Sequence record: MK509462
Strand: one strand, 5' to 3'
DNA length: 64,000 nucleotides
DNA from: Shigella phage MK-13
Of this stretch, positions 50,095 through 60,939 are shown piece by piece; position 1 is the first letter of the stretch, and each line of letters opens with the position of its first letter. A model generated the notes under the pieces. It did no database searches. It saw nothing but the letters and a program-made list of their open reading frames with translations, and was not told where the DNA came from. The translations under genes and the position numbers were made by a program.

Positions 50095-50124
50095 ATTATA
50101 TCCCCCTTTGGTTTATTGAATCAA
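50095..50124 (-). promoter_or_regulatory. Sigma70-like promoter (-35 TTGATT, 18-nt spacer, -10 TATAAT inside a GGGGG/CCCCC hairpin) upstream of the lipoprotein gene
   Basis: Minus strand aaggTTGATTcaataaaccaaagggggaTATAATtccccc; overlaps the polymerase stop; approximate coordinates. Confidence 0.45.
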
Positions 50125-53120
50125 CCTTTCTTCTTTTGCATCATGGCAAGAAGGTTCACACGACGCTTGTGTGACCAGCCGACCACGTCAAGGATGGACT
50201 GAATCGGGTCGATGAAGGACTTCTCAAAGGCTGTGTGGTAATCCACCCATTTACCCATACCCAGTTCCTCGGGGAAGAACTCAGGATATGCGAAGTAATT
50301 CTGGCCAAACGGGTTGCCATTCTTCAGCAGTACCATGTTGACCTTATCACCCGACTCAATCATTGGCAGGCCGAGGTCTTCGTTCTTCTCAACCAGACGG
50401 TTGTAACCCACACAAGCCTTGGCAGCGTAGTGAGCACCAGAGATGAACGAGCCGTCGGCGGCCACACACTTCTCTATGTCGGACACACCGGATGCCTTGG
50501 CGATATCGTCTACAGAGAGCTTCATGTACTCCTCTTTGTACTGGGAGATGAGCGTCTGTACTTCCTCTTCTGTGCCGAGCAGGATCTTCTCATAGCACTT
50601 GACAAGGCGCTCACGACACCATTCCGGCGTGGTGGACTTACGGGCTTCCAGACCTTTGAACTTGATCTTCGGCTTCTCGTACTTGATACCCTCACTGTCG
50701 TACACGGCCATGGCATACATCTTCTTGGCTCGCCAGACGGCAGCTGATGCAATTACTTCACGCTCCCACACCATGCGCTGTTCAAATCCGTTCATGGTGT
50801 TACACAGAAGCTGTGCCCACTCATTGGTCTTCGGCTGGTAGTTGTCTTTGATCCATTGGTCGATATTATCAACCATAGCATGATGGTCAGTAACATCAGG
50901 CCACAACTGCTTGACAAGACGCTCAATGCAGATGTAGTTGGAGTCGGTATCACCCGCGATGACGAAGTCCTGGCCTGTCGTGCCGCACAGCTTGTTCAGA
51001 TAGTCATCGGTGTAGCGCTTGTTCCACTTGTTGATCAGCTGACCGGACGTTGTGATGGCTTCGGCGATGTTGAGGTTGAAGTACTCTTTGAACCAGACGT
51101 TTGAGATCGCGCCATAGCCCGCGTTCATCAAGATCTTCAGACCTTGCTGTAGGGTCTCTTGAGCAACGCCCAGATCTTCCCACTTCTTCATCACTTCGGT
51201 CAGTGCATCAAGATCGATGTTCTTGTGCTCTTCATACCACTCTGGATCGTAGTAGCGGGACTTCATCGCAGACTCAAGATGGAAGTCACCCTTCGACATC
51301 TCTTTACACCATCCAGCCCACTGCTCGTACTTCAGCCCCTTGGCTTTCTCTACTTTACGGTCGCTGTAGATGCCGCGCATGATTTCAGACAGGAACGACA
51401 TCTTCTCGTTGCTGAAGAACTGAACGTTCGGCGTGAAGGACACGTTGTAGCGGCGCAGGGTTTCAAAGTGGAACTCACCCAGGGCAACCAGTTCATCAAC
51501 AACCTGCAGGCGTTCGTCAATCGCACGCAACAGCTTATCGTGAAGGGCTTTCATCAACCGACGTTTGTGCATCGGTGTTGCCATGTTATTCATCTGAGCA
51601 GCCAGCTCTTCACACATAGCCTCAATGATCTCACGGCGCTGGTGTTTGTCGCCAACGATAGTCTCAGGACCGAGGTTGTATTGCTGGATGATGTGAGGGT
51701 AGAGGGAGTTCAAGTCCTCAGAGAAGACCCAGAAGTAGATTCCTGGTGTCACCTCCATGACGTATGCGCCCTCAAAATCGGTCGGACCATCGTATACACG
51801 CTGGATCTTAGGCACTATCCCCTTCTCATACAGACGATAGTAGCACATGGCCAGCCACGGAGCCACAGTTCCCAGGCCGTCTTCATAGTTGGACTTGGTG
51901 CGGTACGCAAGGACGAACATCAGCTGAAGCAAACGCAGCTTCTGTTCTAGACGCCACACCAGCTTGACGTCCTTGATACCATATCGGGTGTGTTTGGCAT
52001 AGTCGTTGAAGTACAGGTCAAAGAGCGACTTGCTCTCACTGTAGTCCATCTTCTTCTCACCCAGCTCACAGTAAGCAATCCAGTCAAGAGAGTAGCGCTC
52101 ACGGGTGGTGTACGTGTGCTTCTTGTAGATCTGCATATAATCGAGCATAGGACAGCCCACGAACTGATACGTCGTGATATCGCCCTTCTTATCGCGAATG
52201 ATACGCTTCTTGATGACACCCCATGGGCTGAGGCGGTTGGTTTCGGCTTCGCCCAGTACCTGGTTCATGCGCTCAACAAGATACGGGCTATCGAACGTTT
52301 CAATGTTCCAGCCTGTCCAGCCGTCGAACTGACGCTGTGACCAGAAGTCAAGGAAAGATCGCAGCAGATCCTGCTCGGTGACAAACTCCTTGTACTCCAC
52401 CTCAAGTCCACCGATCTCCGCGTCTTCTGGATCGTATCTGAACTTCGCACGATCCTTCGCGCACGGCATACCCCACACCATGAACTTATTGGTCGCCATG
52501 TCCTGAAGCTGGATAAGCGTGATAGGGAACGCCGCATTCATGTCCTGGGTGATCTTGCCATTGCTATCAATGATAGGGAACTGGTCGGTCACGTTGTTGC
52601 TGATAAAGGAACTGGGGAAGTGCTCACGGATGAAGTCATGGTTGGCCAGTACCTGCTGATGGAAGCGGCGGATGCGTGCCTCGCTACCTTTGAACGTCTG
52701 CTGCTCAATAGTCGGATGAGGGAATGGACCCTTGGTCATCTCCCCATCTTTCCACCCGGCGGTGAACACTTCGATATCGAGGTTGGCGATATGGATATTG
52801 GAGTAATCCGGCTCGATCTTCCCAGGAAAGCTGTGGGCGATGAACTGGTATGCATAATCGGTCTGCCCGTAAATGGCTGCACCCTGGACTTCCTTATACT
52901 CCTCAAGGTAGTTGTCGGCAGTGCGCATGTCAGGGAACTTCTTAGAGACCAGGGGTTCGTTGAGCAAGCCGACCTTTTCAACATTTGAATAATCAGCCGT
53001 GGGTAAATAGAGAGTGGGTTCGAATTTCTTTTTCAACAGACGGCGATTACCCATGTCATCTGCGATTCGAATCAACAGGTCATTGCCCCGGCGGGCAACG
53101 TTCGTATAGAAAACGGTCAT
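50121..53120 (-). CDS. DNA polymerase, family B (T4 gp43-like)
   Basis: 999 aa; motif C IAGDTDSNYI, exonuclease and polymerase regions collinear with T4 gp43. Confidence 0.9.
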   Translation of the reverse strand: MTVFYTNVARRGNDLLIRIADDMGNRRLLKKKFEPTLYLPTADYSNVEKVGLLNEPLVSKKFPDMRTADNYLEEYKEVQGAAIYGQTDYAYQFIAHSFPGKIEPDYSNIHIANLDIEVFTAGWKDGEMTKGPFPHPTIEQQTFKGSEARIRRFHQQVLANHDFIREHFPSSFISNNVTDQFPIIDSNGKITQDMNAAFPITLIQLQDMATNKFMVWGMPCAKDRAKFRYDPEDAEIGGLEVEYKEFVTEQDLLRSFLDFWSQRQFDGWTGWNIETFDSPYLVERMNQVLGEAETNRLSPWGVIKKRIIRDKKGDITTYQFVGCPMLDYMQIYKKHTYTTRERYSLDWIAYCELGEKKMDYSESKSLFDLYFNDYAKHTRYGIKDVKLVWRLEQKLRLLQLMFVLAYRTKSNYEDGLGTVAPWLAMCYYRLYEKGIVPKIQRVYDGPTDFEGAYVMEVTPGIYFWVFSEDLNSLYPHIIQQYNLGPETIVGDKHQRREIIEAMCEELAAQMNNMATPMHKRRLMKALHDKLLRAIDERLQVVDELVALGEFHFETLRRYNVSFTPNVQFFSNEKMSFLSEIMRGIYSDRKVEKAKGLKYEQWAGWCKEMSKGDFHLESAMKSRYYDPEWYEEHKNIDLDALTEVMKKWEDLGVAQETLQQGLKILMNAGYGAISNVWFKEYFNLNIAEAITTSGQLINKWNKRYTDDYLNKLCGTTGQDFVIAGDTDSNYICIERLVKQLWPDVTDHHAMVDNIDQWIKDNYQPKTNEWAQLLCNTMNGFEQRMVWEREVIASAAVWRAKKMYAMAVYDSEGIKYEKPKIKFKGLEARKSTTPEWCRERLVKCYEKILLGTEEEVQTLISQYKEEYMKLSVDDIAKASGVSDIEKCVAADGSFISGAHYAAKACVGYNRLVEKNEDLGLPMIESGDKVNMVLLKNGNPFGQNYFAYPEFFPEELGMGKWVDYHTAFEKSFIDPIQSILDVVGWSHKRRVNLLAMMQKKKG

Positions 53121-53181: not shown

Positions 53182-53772
53182 TTGACCAAGGAGTTTATTA
53201 TGGCAATCCCCCTCGTTGGTATGATCCCAGGGGCGCTCAAGCAACTCTGGAACCTCGGGACTGATTTGATCCAATATAAGCGGGAAGTTGTTCAAGCCAA
53301 ACACGACGTCAAGCTGGAGGCCATCAAGTCCTCCTCAGATTGGGAGCTGTCTAAGATCACCGAAGTCGGCGGATCTTGGAAAGACGAATTCTGGACTATC
53401 GTGTTAGCCGTACCCGCTATCCTCGTCATGACTGCTCCGGTTGTGGAACTGATTTTGTTCCCTGGTGAGTATCATAAAGGGGATTTCATCAAAGCAGTAA
53501 TCGGTGGCCTCCAGGCGCTCGATACCGCACCTGAATGGTATACCTATTCATTATTGACAGCAATTAGTGCATCATTCGGTATCAAAGGCTACAACCACTA
53601 CAAAAGCAACGGGCGAAAAGCCCAGGCTGTGGATGCTCTCAAGCAGTTTGGGGTCAGGGTCGTACAAAAAGATCCCACTGTTGTTACTCAGTCGGGTGCT
53701 CCCGATCTTGAGTCTGCTCCCCCAGCTGGGTCTACTGCGACCTCTGGTGCGTGGCCTAATCTGAAGAAATAA
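53182..53772 (+). CDS. Membrane protein
   Basis: 196 aa with hydrophobic helices; start may be the second Met. Confidence 0.4.
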   Translation: MTKEFIMAIPLVGMIPGALKQLWNLGTDLIQYKREVVQAKHDVKLEAIKSSSDWELSKITEVGGSWKDEFWTIVLAVPAILVMTAPVVELILFPGEYHKGDFIKAVIGGLQALDTAPEWYTYSLLTAISASFGIKGYNHYKSNGRKAQAVDALKQFGVRVVQKDPTVVTQSGAPDLESAPPAGSTATSGAWPNLKK

Positions 53773-53777
53773 GTTCA

Positions 53778-53805
53778 AGGGGAGGAAACTCCCCTTTCTT
53801 TTGGT
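53778..53805 (+). terminator. Rho-independent terminator (aggggag-gaaa-ctcccct + TTCTTTTGGTGTTT)
   Basis: 7-bp stem with T-rich tail directly after the 53772 stop. Confidence 0.55.
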
Positions 53806-53814
53806 GTTTAGGGA

Positions 53815-54027
53815 ATGAAAGTGGTAAACAAGAGATTGCTCGTCACCCAAGGCGGGGCGACGATAGTGCGCGGAAGGATCTATGAACAGACACAGCTGGG
53901 TGATCACAAGACACGCCTGACTGTTAAGGCTCCCGATGGTGGTTGGCCGACAAAGGTGATTGTCCCAGACGGTCTCATAGAACGAGGGTCGGCAACGTAC
54001 AAGGGAGCAGAGTTCAAAATTTATTAA
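53815..54027 (+). CDS. Hypothetical small protein
   Basis: 70 aa ORF. Confidence 0.3.
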   Translation: MKVVNKRLLVTQGGATIVRGRIYEQTQLGDHKTRLTVKAPDGGWPTKVIVPDGLIERGSATYKGAEFKIY

Positions 54028-54044
54028 AATATTTATTGAATAAA

Positions 54045-54073
54045 GTTTACTTCTTCAATAACTGGCGTATACT
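54045..54073 (+). promoter_or_regulatory. Sigma70-like early promoter (-35 GTTTAC, 17-nt spacer TTCTTCAATAACTGGCG, -10 TATACT)
   Basis: Intergenic 54028..54119 upstream of ATG 54120; approximate coordinates. Confidence 0.45.
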
Positions 54074-54119
54074 TCTAATTGTAGTACGAGCAAACAACAA
54101 TCTGAAGAGAAGGAAATAC

Positions 54120-54680
54120 ATCATGGCAATCGAAATTATCGCTCAATCCAAATCAGGCAAGACTGTAATGTACGGTACTGAAGAAGGCCGCTGCATCATC
54201 AACTACGGCACCATCACTGGCGAGTCTCCAGAGAAAGGCGGTCGCTACCTGGTTGAGTACGGTTCACGCCTGCTGATGGTAAGCAAAGTCGATGGCCGTG
54301 AAATCATGATCCCTCGTAAAGAATACTTTGATTCACGCATTGAAGCCATGCAGTTCTTTTTCTTCCAGAAACGTCACGAACTCTTCGTTGAAGCGAAAGA
54401 CGCAGGTCTGGACGATGCCACTGCCGAACTGATTGCCGAAGGTAAAATGACTCTTGAGGCTGCTCTGGGTGACATGGATTGCGAAGCCGAAGCCCATTAT
54501 ATCGAATATTCCGCTTACCAGAATGAATGTGAAGACGATCCTGAAGACGACGGCTTCGACCCTGACCTTCACGGCGGCGAGGACGACAATACTCCTTCCC
54601 TGGAAGTGATCATGGCAGGCGGTCAGGCCGCTTGGGAGTGGCAGAACGAAAAGAACGCCTGGCTGGATTCCCGTCTTTAA
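54120..54680 (+). CDS. Hypothetical protein with strongly acidic C-terminal half
   Basis: ORF 53943..54680, start placed at ATG 54120 after AGAAGGAAA; C-terminus rich in D/E (EDDPEDDGFDPDLHGGEDD). Confidence 0.45.
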   Translation: MMAIEIIAQSKSGKTVMYGTEEGRCIINYGTITGESPEKGGRYLVEYGSRLLMVSKVDGREIMIPRKEYFDSRIEAMQFFFFQKRHELFVEAKDAGLDDATAELIAEGKMTLEAALGDMDCEAEAHYIEYSAYQNECEDDPEDDGFDPDLHGGEDDNTPSLEVIMAGGQAAWEWQNEKNAWLDSRL

Positions 54681-54727
54681 TATGATGAAGCCCCTGTGGG
54701 GGCTTACTTTGAACTGAAGGACTATAT

Positions 54728-54893
54728 CATGGCAATCGAATATACCGAATCAGAGCACCGGAAGGTGGGCGCGAAATTGGAAGAATTGGCCAAACTCCTC
54801 CGCGAGTACCCATTCTCCGCTGATGTCAAAGAAGAACTCACTCGTGCCATGATGTCTATGGTGACCCTGTTGGCATTTGAAGTATCTGAATGA
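54728..54893 (+). CDS. Hypothetical small protein
   Basis: Start placed at the ATG following the repeated AAGGACTATATC context. Confidence 0.35.
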
Positions 54894-54904
54894 AGGACTA
54901 TATC

Positions 54905-55456
54905 ATGAGCATTCCAAAAACTCCTGTCCGTATCGCTGTTGAGCCTCTGTTGTCGCAGGCCGAAGAAGCTGCCGAGCAGTACGCGAACAAAATCATCAAG
55001 AACGTGATGGACGACCTGGCCGCCAACGGCTGGGATCTTCAGAAGTGCGCTCCTTGGCCATCAACTGTCGGCATCCGAATGGGGCATCACGATTACCATC
55101 GCATGAAGGCAAAGCAGTCTTTGTATATGAGCCTGACTGCCGACAATAACCCACCAACCCGCTCTTATCGACCAGGTGCACCGAACATCGTCAAGGCCGA
55201 TCCAGAGCGCCAACGTCTGTTCATCAAGGAAGCCCGTCGCAACGCTGCACATCAGTATGAGTCTTTCATCTGCAAACTGGAAGACAAGATTGGCGGTCAC
55301 AGCGCGGCTGTGCTGGACGGTTCCCATATTTGGGGGCATTCAATTCTGACCGTGACTACTCCGGAAGGGATCCAGCGCTGGAAGACCCAGACTATCATCA
55401 ACGTGTCGAAGCTGGGTAAACTCTTTAACCAATATCCAACTCGGAAGGTGAAATGA
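54905..55456 (+). CDS. Hypothetical protein
   Basis: Start placed at the ATG following the second AAGGACTATATC context. Confidence 0.45.
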   Translation: MSIPKTPVRIAVEPLLSQAEEAAEQYANKIIKNVMDDLAANGWDLQKCAPWPSTVGIRMGHHDYHRMKAKQSLYMSLTADNNPPTRSYRPGAPNIVKADPERQRLFIKEARRNAAHQYESFICKLEDKIGGHSAAVLDGSHIWGHSILTVTTPEGIQRWKTQTIINVSKLGKLFNQYPTRKVK

Positions 55457-55827
55457 TGAACAACTTCGCACAGGAACTACAAGCAACCATAACCCAGGCT
55501 CAGGCCTGGAATGCTATGAGCAAAGTTGAAAAAGCCGTCGACATCTTTGTCAAGGAAGTGAAGAAAAACCTTATGCTCGAGGCGTCACGAGGCGTTGAAA
55601 TTGACGATATGGCATACGTCGTTTGTGGGCATACCTTTGACAATATGTTCACGGCATTCCACCAGGCTTACAGATGTTCACACTATCCGTCAGAGCACGA
55701 AATGAAAAAGTTCAAGAAGTTGCTGGGAGAAAGGATGCTCCAGGAAGGTCTGAAATTCGAATTCCGAAAGAATGAGCGAACCGAAATCGTTACCATGAGA
55801 TTCACAGCCCACACGGGCGAGATTTAA
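55453..55827 (+). CDS. Hypothetical protein
   Basis: 124 aa; ATGA coupling. Confidence 0.45.
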   Translation: MMNNFAQELQATITQAQAWNAMSKVEKAVDIFVKEVKKNLMLEASRGVEIDDMAYVVCGHTFDNMFTAFHQAYRCSHYPSEHEMKKFKKLLGERMLQEGLKFEFRKNERTEIVTMRFTAHTGEI

Positions 55828-55832
55828 AAGAA

Positions 55833-55853
55833 AGGGGCTTAATGCCCCTTTTG
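55833..55853. terminator. Bidirectional terminator (aggggc-ttaat-gcccct) between convergent genes
   Basis: 6-bp GC stem flanked by A-run and T-run, between the + gene ending 55827 and the - gene ending 55854. Confidence 0.55.
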
Positions 55854-56312
55854 TTATTCTTCCCAGAAGTCGTCATCGTCCCCGACGGCGGCCAGTTCCG
55901 TGTCCAGGTCTTCATCAGTGAACGGCGGTAGTACCCCATTCTGAATCAGATAATCCATTTCATCGTCTTCCAGCTGCAGGTCAGTGGCAATATACAGCGC
56001 TCCGCTGCCCTCTTCGTCCGTCTCGATACTGTACGAAGTGTATGGCACCCCATTCACTGTAATGATGATAGACGTTGGATCCTCGGGATCTACGTGCGCC
56101 TCGAACGGCACACCATCAATCGGCGCATCTTCCAGGAAGGTGGCAAGGGCTACAGCGGCGCGAACAACATCAGTGCCTTCAACGCCTGCATAGATCTCTT
56201 CCGCGCCCGTCTCTTCACGATCAAACAGCTCAATCGTGATACCGTCTTGAACACCAGTCCATACGGGGATGTCATTGGTGTATTCTGATTCAAACAATTT
56301 GGAGGTTGGCAT
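55854..56312 (-). CDS. Highly acidic protein (candidate DNA-mimic-type anti-restriction protein)
   Basis: 152 aa with very high Asp/Glu content throughout; function inferred only from composition. Confidence 0.4.
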   Translation of the reverse strand: MPTSKLFESEYTNDIPVWTGVQDGITIELFDREETGAEEIYAGVEGTDVVRAAVALATFLEDAPIDGVPFEAHVDPEDPTSIIITVNGVPYTSYSIETDEEGSGALYIATDLQLEDDEMDYLIQNGVLPPFTDEDLDTELAAVGDDDDFWEE

Positions 56313-56457
56313 GTTGGGTTCCTCAGTGGGTTAGCCATATGGGGTATTTAGGCTTCCCGCACCGCCAGGCCTGGTTTGTACAGGACGATCTCACGGAAAT
56401 ATTCAAGAAAGGTTTCATAGATACCCCACACGGGTTGTATGGGGTATTTAGAAGGGA

Positions 56458-57756
56458 TCAGGAAGGGGTGAAGCCGTTTACGGGTACTGTTTCAGGGATA
56501 GCCAGCTCAGGGCATGCAGCCTTCATTGGCTCGATGTACGGCTTGCTACCCACAATCCAGAACAGAGTGTTCTCATTGAGCAACTCGGGCTTGTTCTGCT
56601 GGATCCAGGTCATGACCTTGCCTTCATAGCGAGGGTGCAACTCAATATCACCCCACTGATAATCCATCAGGTCATTGTAACGAACCCAGTTGGTGGTGTG
56701 AAGATCCCAATGGTGTACCTCAAAACGAGGAAGCGTTATCTCTGGCTCGTCCTTCTGCCTGATACCACTTAGGAGGCCAGCCAGCGAAACGCTCTTAGAG
56801 GCATGCTGAAGCTCCTTCTTGCCGTGGACATAGTCTGGGTTGTCGTGATAACGGCGGGTGAAGTCGACAATGTGAGGCAGATTGGCTTGCTTACCAATGA
56901 TACGCAGGCGGCTCTCAATGAAGTCCAGGCGGTTTGGTCCAATCCCAATCAGATAAACACGCTTCAGATTAGGCTTAGGATGCATCGCCAGCCCGGTCAG
57001 GATGCTTGTGCATGAGTTGCATGATCCAGCAGGGATGATCAGATCGGTGATGTGGTCTGGGATGTTAGCAACCTGCTCGCCACCCAGCATATGGAAGCCA
57101 GCGATGCGCTCTGGGGAGTGAGCCGTGTGGTCCAGGGTGATACCATATTCCAGGTAGTACGCCTTTGGATTCACCTGCTCAATGAGTTTCTTACAGCGCG
57201 GCTGGATCGTGCTGTTGTAACCCGAGCCGACGAAGTTGAACTCACTGCCGAACCAGGCGCTCATCTCAACCATCCCATGGTTCATGCAAGTGGTTGGTTT
57301 GGTCGCGCCGAGTACAGTGGTTGTCTTTCCGCCGAAGTGCCGAGAGACTGCCGTCGCCATAGGGGATTGCGGACTACCAACGACAGTACCGTGGATGATG
57401 TCAGGGGAACCTCCGGCCTTCAGGTGCTCAACCATCAGCCAGATGGCCTGGCGCAACTTACTGCCATTGATGCCCTGCTGACCATTTGCGTAATTGGACA
57501 GCGGTGCAAAGTAATCTTCACGCTTGAACCAGACCTGCTGATTGGTTTCGGGGTTGGCAACGAGTTCGCACGGGGTGTGCTTGTAGAGATAGTCTTCCCA
57601 GTGGATGACATTGCGGTCAAGCGAGAGAGCATTGAAGATAGTTTTGCGGTCGCCCATAAGGGCATCCGGGGTATATGGAGCAAAGATAAAAGGGCTGGCG
57701 TTTTCTTCTATCGCCTGTTTGGTGATATCTATAAGTTTCTGAGTTTTGTCGTTCAT
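56458..57756 (-). CDS. PLP-dependent enzyme, fold type II (tryptophan synthase beta / ACC deaminase-like superfamily)
   Basis: WFKREDYFAPLSNYANGQQGINGSKLRQAI parallels the KRDDL...GGNKxRKLE lysine motif region of ACC/D-cysteine desulfhydrase-type enzymes; 432 aa. Confidence 0.5.
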   Translation of the reverse strand: MNDKTQKLIDITKQAIEENASPFIFAPYTPDALMGDRKTIFNALSLDRNVIHWEDYLYKHTPCELVANPETNQQVWFKREDYFAPLSNYANGQQGINGSKLRQAIWLMVEHLKAGGSPDIIHGTVVGSPQSPMATAVSRHFGGKTTTVLGATKPTTCMNHGMVEMSAWFGSEFNFVGSGYNSTIQPRCKKLIEQVNPKAYYLEYGITLDHTAHSPERIAGFHMLGGEQVANIPDHITDLIIPAGSCNSCTSILTGLAMHPKPNLKRVYLIGIGPNRLDFIESRLRIIGKQANLPHIVDFTRRYHDNPDYVHGKKELQHASKSVSLAGLLSGIRQKDEPEITLPRFEVHHWDLHTTNWVRYNDLMDYQWGDIELHPRYEGKVMTWIQQNKPELLNENTLFWIVGSKPYIEPMKAACPELAIPETVPVNGFTPS

Positions 57757-57825: not shown

Positions 57826-58524
57826 TTACTTCTTGAACAGACGAAGGAACTTCATCATGTTTTCCATGAAAGTCGGCTTCTTGACCTTTTGTTTTACCGG
57901 AGCACCCTGATCATTCAGAACACGACTGGCCGGAGGGGTAGGAGCCACAGGTGGCTCTACATATTTTCGATTCAGGCTTTCTTCAATCTCGCCCAATGAG
58001 GCGTCCTTCGTAGCCGGAACGATATTCACTGTATGACGCGGGGATTCAGCGACGTATTTGTTGTCAACCACAGTGACAGGCTTGACGAGATTCTTTTCGT
58101 ACTCGCGAGCCATGGCCTGGTACTTCCGATTCTCTGCGTCGAAGTCCATAGAAACGGCTTTACGACAACGGCGGGTTGCGCTTTCATCACCATAGAAATA
58201 GAAGAAGTTTTTGACCAGCCAATGGATTGCCTGTTCACGCGTATAGAATACTTTGAACGGCTGACCGTCGCCCTCTTCGGCGGCGGTAATACTAGAGTAA
58301 CCCATAAGGACAACCTGCCCCTTCACGCCGAGATCAAAGGGTGTGCATTCGCCAGGCTGGTTGAGATCACGCGGAGCGAGCTGGGAGCCGCGATGGATAT
58401 AATTCGGCGACAAGAACTCGTTCAGAGTACGCTTGTTGCCTTTGTATTGGAACATACGGATTATAGTTGGGGTGGACTGCAATTCCCATTCTTCAGTATT
58501 TTCCCAGATAGAAACATTACGCAT
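57826..58524 (-). CDS. Hypothetical protein
   Basis: 232 aa ORF. Confidence 0.45.
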   Translation of the reverse strand: MRNVSIWENTEEWELQSTPTIIRMFQYKGNKRTLNEFLSPNYIHRGSQLAPRDLNQPGECTPFDLGVKGQVVLMGYSSITAAEEGDGQPFKVFYTREQAIHWLVKNFFYFYGDESATRRCRKAVSMDFDAENRKYQAMAREYEKNLVKPVTVVDNKYVAESPRHTVNIVPATKDASLGEIEESLNRKYVEPPVAPTPPASRVLNDQGAPVKQKVKKPTFMENMMKFLRLFKK

Positions 58525-58594: not shown

Positions 58595-59113
58595 TTAGAT
58601 GGTGCTCATGTAGAGAGGAACCACCTGCTCTGCGATCAGAACGATCTCATTAATGGTGAAGTCGCCACCATAAGAATACAGCTTCATCTGCGCCCCGTTG
58701 GTTGCGAGGTTCCCTGCCTTGTCAACACTGAAGAACGTGATAAAGGAGAGAACGTCTGGGGGCGGTACGCTGGAATCTCGACTCTTAGACAATTGGTTGC
58801 CTGTAGAGCCAACAAAGTCCAGCAACATCGTCCTGTTGGATGTCGAACCAGACCATGTTCCGATGATGTTCACCTTGACAGGCAAGATAGAATCGACCGG
58901 AAATGCATGGAACTTATGGTCGGACAATTTGAAGAAAGGGGCTAACCCAGTCACAGACGAAGGATGCGGTGTTTTACCGTCCAACAACGTTAAGAGATCA
59001 ACACCAGTCGCTCCAGCAGGCAAAGCCGCTGTGAGGCCAGAGAACCTCACTTCAACTTTGATGCGGTGCGTCTGGAGCATATTGCCCAGGTAAGGAGAAG
59101 GTAGAATGGCCAT
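58595..59113 (-). CDS. Hypothetical protein (late-transcribed, possibly virion-associated)
   Basis: 172 aa; immediately downstream of a gene with a TATAAATA late promoter. Confidence 0.4.
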   Translation of the reverse strand: MAILPSPYLGNMLQTHRIKVEVRFSGLTAALPAGATGVDLLTLLDGKTPHPSSVTGLAPFFKLSDHKFHAFPVDSILPVKVNIIGTWSGSTSNRTMLLDFVGSTGNQLSKSRDSSVPPPDVLSFITFFSVDKAGNLATNGAQMKLYSYGGDFTINEIVLIAEQVVPLYMSTI

Positions 59114-60510: not shown

Positions 60511-60939
60511 TTTATCCGTGCTTGTTCGCTTCAATCGCCCTTAATTGGGCATCAGCGTCAGCTTTGGTGTCATGTGTACCAAGAACCTTCGTCTTGGTGT
60601 GGTCAAGGACAACCCACTTGTCACCTCGCTTTTCAACAAACTCGACAATCTCTTTGTTGTCGGTAGCGAGGCCATCCCACTCAGCAATAAAATCACCGAA
60701 CGTTTTCATCATACTCACCAATTGTTTATTGAACAACTGGTTTATTTAGGTGCTCCCAAGGCGGTATTTGAATCCCGCGATCCCATCACACCTGCCGTAG
60801 ACCGGAGCTTGCTGGCAGTCCAACAATGTTTGGCGGGGTTTGAGGATTTTCACCTCACCTGCTGGGTTTGGCCGCCCAGCCGTTCTCTATGAGGATTCGC
60901 TGTCCGGACAACTATCCCTTAAACTATCGCCCCTCAATT

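Follow-up and report, generated by a model that had tools for sequence, protein, structure and literature searches.

The 64,000-nucleotide stretch of Shigella phage MK-13 DNA analysed here (record MK509462; the window) encodes two strongly acidic proteins, the products of open reading frames (ORFs) E and A, and raises the question of what these proteins do for the phage. A preliminary description made from the sequence alone proposed both as candidate DNA mimics that inhibit restriction or other DNA-binding defence proteins. Both are real genes, E because its ratio of nonsynonymous to synonymous substitution (dN/dS) relative to orthologues is 0.02–0.09 and it matches phrog_3852 end to end (expectation value 3.5e-82), and A because it matches its own PHROG family, phrog_4823, end to end (1.7e-119). 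The two appear to be unrelated, with no relation between them found by hhalign, and are not to be handled as one finding. ORF E encodes a previously uncharacterised, putatively virion-internal phage protein that looks, as it stands, like an ordinary virion accessory; the explanation we prefer, tentatively, is that it is a late, head-internal core protein that leaves the capsid together with the DNA.

A conserved acidic protein of the Ackermannviridae

The E product is Asp- and Glu-rich throughout, as the preliminary description stated. Forty of its 152 residues are acidic (26.3% D+E) and three are Lys or Arg (2.0%), for a net charge of -37 and a computed isoelectric point (pI; Biopython) of 4.05, and all 20-residue windows are negative. 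It ranks first in acidity among the 98 non-overlapping ATG-initiated ORFs of the window, with a net charge per residue of -0.243 compared to an ORF mean of -0.003 (standard deviation 0.060), placing it about four standard deviations out. The acidity is kept in the family: of the 24 sequences in the alignment (22 homologues and the window protein counted), 23 have net charges between -33 and -40. The sole exception is the entry from Salmonella phage Vi01 (P0027, ‘phage associated protein’), which diverges across ~25 residues; the divergence is total between alignment columns ~55 and 80, after which the family sequence resumes, and the segment looks like the product of paired compensating frameshifts or sequencing errors in the database record.

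The window is from an Agtrevirus-like Ackermannviridae genome, and the region shares 96–97% DNA identity with the Agtrevirus phages Gloob, P46FS4, SKML-39 and Ag3. E is under strong purifying selection. By tblastn it is present in 276 phage records, compared to 277 records with the adjacent-gene DNA polymerase at ≥60% identity, and because these counts are nearly equal it is a core gene of the enterobacterial Ackermannviridae. Klebsiella phages of the Taipeivirus group encode it at ~80% identity, and more distant phages of Vibrio, whose polymerase is 50% identical, have no syntenic E. The homologues are restricted to Ackermannviridae contigs of ~150–160 kb. When 1.8 billion representative proteins were searched exhaustively with a profile, eight matched at an expectation value ≤0.001, five of which are full-length homologues of ~150 residues; a 559-residue match was rejected as a family member because it is a repeat protein with similarity over 30 residues alone. 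The family thus does not reach beyond Ackermannviridae-like phages. Such universal conservation under purifying selection appears unlike that of typical anti-defence genes, which are patchily distributed.

AlphaFold2 predicts for E a compact alpha/beta domain with the element order beta1-3, alpha1, beta4-7, alpha2 (predicted local distance difference test, pLDDT, 76.4; predicted template modelling score, pTM, 0.72). There is no secondary structure before residue 16, and residues 1–10 have a mean pLDDT of 66. The domain is followed by a disordered acidic tail (Table 1) in which D148-F149-W150 is invariant in the family alignment. A scan of the window and of three LIMEstone1 loci (L014, L015 and L008; 112 of 152 kb) found no other ORF with such a C-terminal tail. 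Mimicry of the tails of phage gp32, gp33, gp55 or polymerase was considered and rejected, since those tails differ.

In size, D+E share and net charge E lies within the range of known DNA mimics. In sequence, PDB and structure searches neither E nor A proved similar in sequence or fold to any characterised mimic, and searches of Pfam, NCBIfam, PHROGs and PDB sequences return no functional annotation for either, the PHROG matches being to families of unknown function only. A BFVD structure search with E recovers only its own family. The preliminary description had held that an ordinary enzyme fold with a defined active site would speak against mimicry; no enzyme fold or active site is recognised among the structural matches of E, and no solved mimic is either. 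These results do not refute mimicry, but they give it no positive support.

Expression signals, virion detection and the neighbouring gene

Upstream of E is a motif of late-promoter type, CTAAATACCCC, with a TAAATA core. This 11-mer occurs just twice in the window, once before E and once before the scar of a deleted gene described below. Its spacing from the E start is constant in all ten genomes compared (at least five genera), and the motif is retained in the divergent Bue1 and RCIP0012, where the flanking sequences have changed. The LIMEstone1 record annotates these sites as putative late promoters, and the TAAATA core is common to LIMEstone1 sites before the baseplate, scaffold and other virion genes confirmed by mass spectrometry. 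The motif has been named as a family-specific regulatory motif (PMC7283392) and may be compared with the T4 late promoter, TATAAATA (PMC3184105). The terminator hairpin downstream of E is also kept in all ten genomes, and in Ag3 it is annotated on both strands. The E-containing operon also carries an orthologue of LIMEstone1 ORF169, a confirmed virion protein.

These signals bear on the possibility that E, and perhaps A, is a classical mimic of the Ocr/ArdA type, made from the incoming genome to act against restriction or BREX. Of the readings considered this one fits E least well because the motif before E is of late rather than early type, and we regard it as very unlikely. It would account for the size of E, its 26% D+E content and net charge of -37, and for the lack of a recognised enzyme fold; A is preceded by an early/middle-type motif, and A relatives occur among small early genes beside DNA methyltransferases. 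However, neither E nor A resembles any solved mimic in sequence or fold, E is universal rather than patchy, and the acidic segment of A is a disordered linker of variable length. In addition, Taipeivirus phiHS2 is still moderately BREX-sensitive (bioRxiv 10.64898/2026.05.19.726188), which is indirect in that its possession of E is extrapolated from Taipeivirus-group phages and not from the phiHS2 genome. Although the motif before E is late-type, its LIMEstone1 orthologue was detected in virions and injection is possible; E could still be a mimic or decoy that is delivered ready-made in the virion, and it is more likely to be carried in the head than to be made early as a restriction blocker.

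The LIMEstone1 orthologue of E (ORF174, 16.62 kDa) was identified in purified virions from one unique peptide with 12.50% coverage, as was the product of the adjacent gene (ORF173, 17.33 kDa; one unique peptide, 11.84% coverage; PMC3296691). The 12.50% coverage corresponds exactly to tryptic peptide 33–51 of E. With three Lys or Arg residues E can yield at most two tryptic peptides of measurable size, and because there are so few cleavage sites a single peptide is close to the obtainable maximum and not as weak as it looks. The ‘putative structural protein’ labels on E orthologues in GenBank were rejected as independent evidence, since they trace to the single LIMEstone1 data set.

The first ten residues of E form a candidate capsid-targeting and protease-cleavage peptide with an L-x-E motif. 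In the family alignment M1, S4, L6 and F7 do not vary and E8 hardly does, and the motif is retained in homologues with 40–48% identity. It resembles the N-termini of the LIMEstone1 scaffolding protein and T4 Alt (Table 1). The T4 internal proteins share only a targeting peptide of ~10 residues that is removed by the head protease (PMC3012670, PMC7697877). A 65-residue ORF on the minus strand of the window (60512..60709) begins MKTFGDFIAE, identical to the T4 capsid-targeting sequence at seven of ten positions, and matches just positions 121–186 of the 262-position phrog_3684. We did not use it as support for T4-type targeting because it sits directly behind an early-type motif, TTCAATAA...TATGAT (60708..60733, minus strand).

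In Gloob, LIMEstone1, Kuttervirus and RCIP0012 a gene of ~150 codons lies between E and the gene for a pyridoxal phosphate (PLP)-dependent enzyme, and its product matches the ADP-ribosyltransferase (ART) domain ART-PolyVal (PF18760) with 46.6 bits in Gloob, 42.7 in N6 and 38.4 in RCIP0012 (gathering cut-off 31.2). About 229 phage records carry this gene, which is intact in Limestonevirus and in many Klebsiella phages. In Gloob the gene (gp182; L001 4719..5177) is annotated as an N-acetyltransferase, yet it matches the ADP-ribosyltransferase model. Published work describes this clade of ARTs, and T4 Alt likewise, as effectors that are commonly packaged in the head and injected, above all among myoviruses (PMC5512222, PMC9503650). 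The ART N-terminus, MKTFLQYLQE, bears a striking likeness to the T4 sequences MKTYQEFIAE and MKTFKEF, and those of LIMEstone1 ORF080, ORF082 and scaffold resemble the N-termini of T4 IPI/II/III, Alt and gp22. ART, and less securely E, would then be targeted to the prohead core in the manner of the T4 internal proteins. We note that ART and several LIMEstone1 virion proteins start with MK(T/P)F-x-Q-(Y/F)-x-x-E, very like MKTYQEFIAE, which suggests an unrecognised group of head-packaged cargo proteins in the Ackermannviridae.

In the window and in Shigella phage Ag3 the ART gene has been lost through a deletion of ~388 nt with identical breakpoints in the alignment, leaving the promoter motif in place. 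We considered that the remnant might be an in-frame mini-gene of 23 codons, but alignment and ORF listing put its two ends out of frame and it is a scar. About 47 genomes have E but lack the ART gene, and in Bue1 E is present with neither the ART nor the PLP enzyme gene nearby. Gloob, in which ART is intact, encodes exactly the same E protein as Ag3 and the window, from which ART has been lost. Because E persists in genomes without ART, it does not seem to depend on it. An ART match in a Limnohabitans phage was set aside as evidence on E, since it lies inside a giant polyvalent protein and is uninformative. That E is a dedicated partner of the ART-PolyVal protein (a chaperone, packaging adaptor or inhibitor, like the acidic chaperones encoded beside type III effectors) is weakened by this persistence, and we consider it quite unlikely.

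A stronger alternative, although still an unlikely one, is that E serves the prohead core or scaffold as an accessory protein, needed to assemble the head or to package the DNA, much like the acidic T4 core proteins gp67, gp68 and gp22, and has no function in the next host. The near-equal record counts for E and polymerase and the very low dN/dS are typical of morphogenetic rather than arms-race genes, E has a late-promoter motif, and a K-L-F-E motif is common to E and the N-terminus of the scaffolding protein; T4 core proteins are extremely acidic too, one example being the gp67 C-terminus. However, the E gene lies a long way from the cluster of head genes, no relation of E to T4 gp68 or Inh emerges from hhalign, and the invariant D-F-W tail, of docking type, together with the adjoining ART of injected-effector type suggest a role involving a partner protein.

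The preferred reading of E, as a head-internal core protein that leaves with the DNA, can be set out in four steps. First, E would be transcribed from the T4-late-type promoter CTAAATACCCC when the structural genes are expressed. Second, M-x-x-S-K-L-F-E-S-E could act as a capsid-targeting sequence directing E into the prohead core, with the prohead protease trimming after L-F-E. Third, E would stay in the filled head, consistent with the LIMEstone1 mass spectrometry identification, and in most relatives would do so beside the ART-PolyVal protein. Fourth, and this is the most speculative and weakest step, the alpha/beta domain and D-F-W tail might occupy a basic nucleic acid-binding surface of a host or phage protein after ejection.

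Several observations weigh against this sequence of events. The virion evidence, one peptide in one phage, is real but thin. E and ART (gp115 and gp116) are missing from the Sajous1 virion protein table, which is built on trypsin data, and from the supplementary files examined, for which the trypsin-poor sequence may be a reason; E is likewise missing from the small number of gel bands studied in Ag3, EspM4VN and phiD3. The match to the T4 targeting sequence is loose, with M, T, F and E shared at positions 1, 3, 7 and 10, and late transcription is a function attributed to the promoter motif. Finally, the universal conservation fits a role in assembly at least as well as a decoy acting after ejection.

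A further reading is that E is a ready-made injected decoy, a DNA-like polyanion that all enterobacterial Ackermannviridae would carry in the capsid and that would neutralise a DNA-binding defence of the host as the DNA enters. This would be favoured by the acidic tail with its aromatic tip, the effector neighbour and the precedent of T4 IPI*, which counters a modification-dependent nuclease (PMC3012670), although we hold it to be doubtful at best, about on a par with the ART-partner role. A candidate target would be a nuclease recognising the 5-NeOmdU-hypermodified DNA of the phage, in which case E would be a functional counterpart of IPI*, which acts against GmrSD. The Ackermannviridae are widely used in biocontrol and therapy against Salmonella, E. 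coli O157, Klebsiella, Shigella and Dickeya, and half of their genes have no assigned function. If E and ART are indeed packaged in the head and ejected, these phages would use a T4-style capsid-targeting system with their own cargo, which would offer a handle for finding other cargo proteins and a route for packaging foreign proteins into Ackermannviridae capsids, and a universal injected polyanion would be a candidate means of passing host DNA-binding defences.

ORF A and the surrounding genes

ORF A is the second most acidic of the 98 ORFs (21.6% D+E; net charge -23, computed on 54120..54680, in which the extra Ile is uncharged). The preliminary description was right that its C-terminal half is acidic, the negative charge sitting in residues ~95–160 where 20-residue windows range from -4 to -9, but the start is corrected to the ATG at 54123, position 54120 being an Ile codon. 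The predicted structure (pLDDT 70) has a beta domain (residues 1–69), helices (72–115), a disordered acidic linker (118–153) and C-terminal helices (160–184). Across the family the N-terminal domain of A varies and insertions and deletions are frequent in the linker, whereas the helical module is conserved and the C-terminal helix is near-invariant; two segments are highly conserved, AKDAGL..ALGDMD and GGEDDNTPxLEVIMAGG..W..QNEKNAWLD. From the model, the acidity appears to belong to a flexible spacer of variable length between conserved modules, and not to a folded DNA-like surface.

A motif upstream of A differs at one position from TTCAAT-N14-TATAAT, a class with 18 matches (≤2 mismatches) in the window where 3.6 are expected, and which has also been named elsewhere (PMC7283392). 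Sites of the extended form TTCAAT(AA)-N14-TATAAT, examples of which are at 50095..50120 (minus), 54054..54079 (plus) and 60708..60733 (minus), often immediately precede gene starts and probably represent the early/middle class of promoters in these phages. A full-length relative of A is encoded by the unrelated 75-kb Pantoea phage LIET2 (gp064; L016 2384..2815), with a near-identical segment of 35 residues at the C-terminus, and a shorter one by coliphage LF82-40; in each phage the gene has small genes around it and DNA methyltransferases nearby. The LIET2 relative suggests that the gene was transferred horizontally and that its interaction motif is under strong constraint. None of the Dickeya phages has A. 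In LIMEstone1, ORF176 (L008 6545..7105; compare window 53815..55456) results from a deletion that fuses the genes flanking A, joining the first 38 codons of a 70-residue ORF (53815..54027) to the body of a 183-residue ORF (54905..55456) and removing A and a 54-residue ORF. Because A is lacking in the Dickeya phages and deleted in LIMEstone1, it and the neighbouring small genes appear to be dispensable. Our best guess is that A acts early as an accessory protein and uses its invariant C-terminal helix to bind a partner that is itself conserved.

The PLP-dependent enzyme encoded upstream of E has 432 residues and a weak PALP match, and is annotated in LIMEstone1 as a threonine ammonia-lyase; it may be the PLP enzyme of the pathway by which thymidine is hypermodified to 5-NeOmdU, known from ViI-like phages. 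Its LIMEstone1 counterpart has a homing endonuclease gene immediately upstream. In the window the enzyme gene and E are separated by 145 bp, with E downstream.

Table 1. Coordinates of features in the window (or in the LIMEstone1 locus named) and N-terminal peptides compared with that of E
Feature	Coordinates	Strand	Remarks
Family B DNA polymerase	50121..53120	minus	
Block of six small genes	53200..55827	plus	ORF A among them
Promoter-like motif upstream of A	54054..54079	plus	TTCAATAA-N-TCTAAT; early/middle type; 1 mismatch to TTCAAT-N14-TATAAT
ORF A	54123..54680	plus	185 aa; phrog_4823; modular protein
A codons 118–153	54474..54581	plus	Disordered acidic linker, pLDDT <50; source of the ‘acidic C-terminal half’
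Terminator hairpin	55830..55852	both	Bidirectional, intrinsic; between ORF D (plus) and ORF E (minus)
ORF E	55854..56312	minus	152 aa; phrog_3852; orthologue of LIMEstone1 ORF174 and CBA120 orf230
E codons 132–152	55857..55919	minus	Disordered acidic tail ending DDDDFWEE; pLDDT <50
E codons 1–10	56283..56312	minus	MPTSKLFESE; L-x-E motif; candidate targeting and cleavage peptide
Late-promoter-type motif	56341..56351	minus	CTAAATACCCC; TAAATA core; ~30 nt upstream of E start codon
ART gene deletion scar	56348..56418	minus	~71 nt; ~25 nt of 5′ end joined out of frame to last ~55 nt
Second copy of motif	56441..56451	minus	CTAAATACCCC; orphaned promoter of deleted ART gene
Operon ending in E	58598..59113, 57826..58524, 56458..57756 (PLP-dependent enzyme), ORF E	minus	Listed high to low; E at 3′ end
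LIMEstone1 ORF173 (ART)	L008 5191..5649		
LIMEstone1 ORF080	L015 8789..9358		N-terminus MKPFIQYFNE; confirmed virion protein
LIMEstone1 ORF082	L015 10520..11011		N-terminus MSKPSFLQFMQE, contains SFLQFMQE; confirmed virion protein
LIMEstone1 scaffolding protein			N-terminus MKPELQKLFEG
ART, Gloob			N-terminus MKTFLQYLQESE
ART, Kuttervirus			N-terminus MKTFLEFYRES
T4 IPII, IPIII			N-terminus MKTYQEFIAE
T4 IPI			N-terminus MKTFKEF
T4 Alt			N-terminus MELITELFDE

Comparison with known systems

The DNA mimics T7 Ocr, ArdA and T4 Arn are, like E, small non-enzymatic proteins with ~25–30% acidic and almost no basic residues. E differs in having no homology or fold match to them and in its late rather than early signal, and whereas DNA mimics form an elongated DNA-shaped dimer, E is predicted to be a monomeric alpha/beta domain with a disordered tail. 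The tail itself recalls those of E. coli SSB (DDDIPF) and T7 gp2.5 and gp4, which are likewise disordered and Asp-rich with a terminal aromatic motif, as in the invariant D-F-W of E. Tails of this type dock into basic pockets of partner proteins and compete with DNA. In contrast to these proteins E has no oligonucleotide-binding (OB) fold or other DNA-binding domain, its motif differs, and two acidic residues follow its aromatic pair. A third comparison is with the class I type III secretion chaperones (CesT, ShcA and ExsC), which are also acidic proteins of ~130–150 residues encoded next to the gene for a delivered effector, and whose element order, beta-beta-beta-alpha-beta-beta-alpha, is similar to that in the E model.

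The T4 internal proteins IPI*, IPII and IPIII, together with Alt, are capsid-targeted, protease-trimmed and ejected. E has no sequence homology with them and is far more acidic, and whereas T-even phages differ widely in their internal proteins (PMC3012670), E is universal in its family; its own cleavage and ejection are putative. The likenesses are that E is also small, has a late expression signal and is detected in the virion of a T4-related myovirus, that it has a conserved N-terminal peptide predicted to be unstructured and carrying an (L/I)-x-E motif, that its neighbour is an ART with a T4-like N-terminus, and that the DNA is hypermodified in T4 and in this phage alike.

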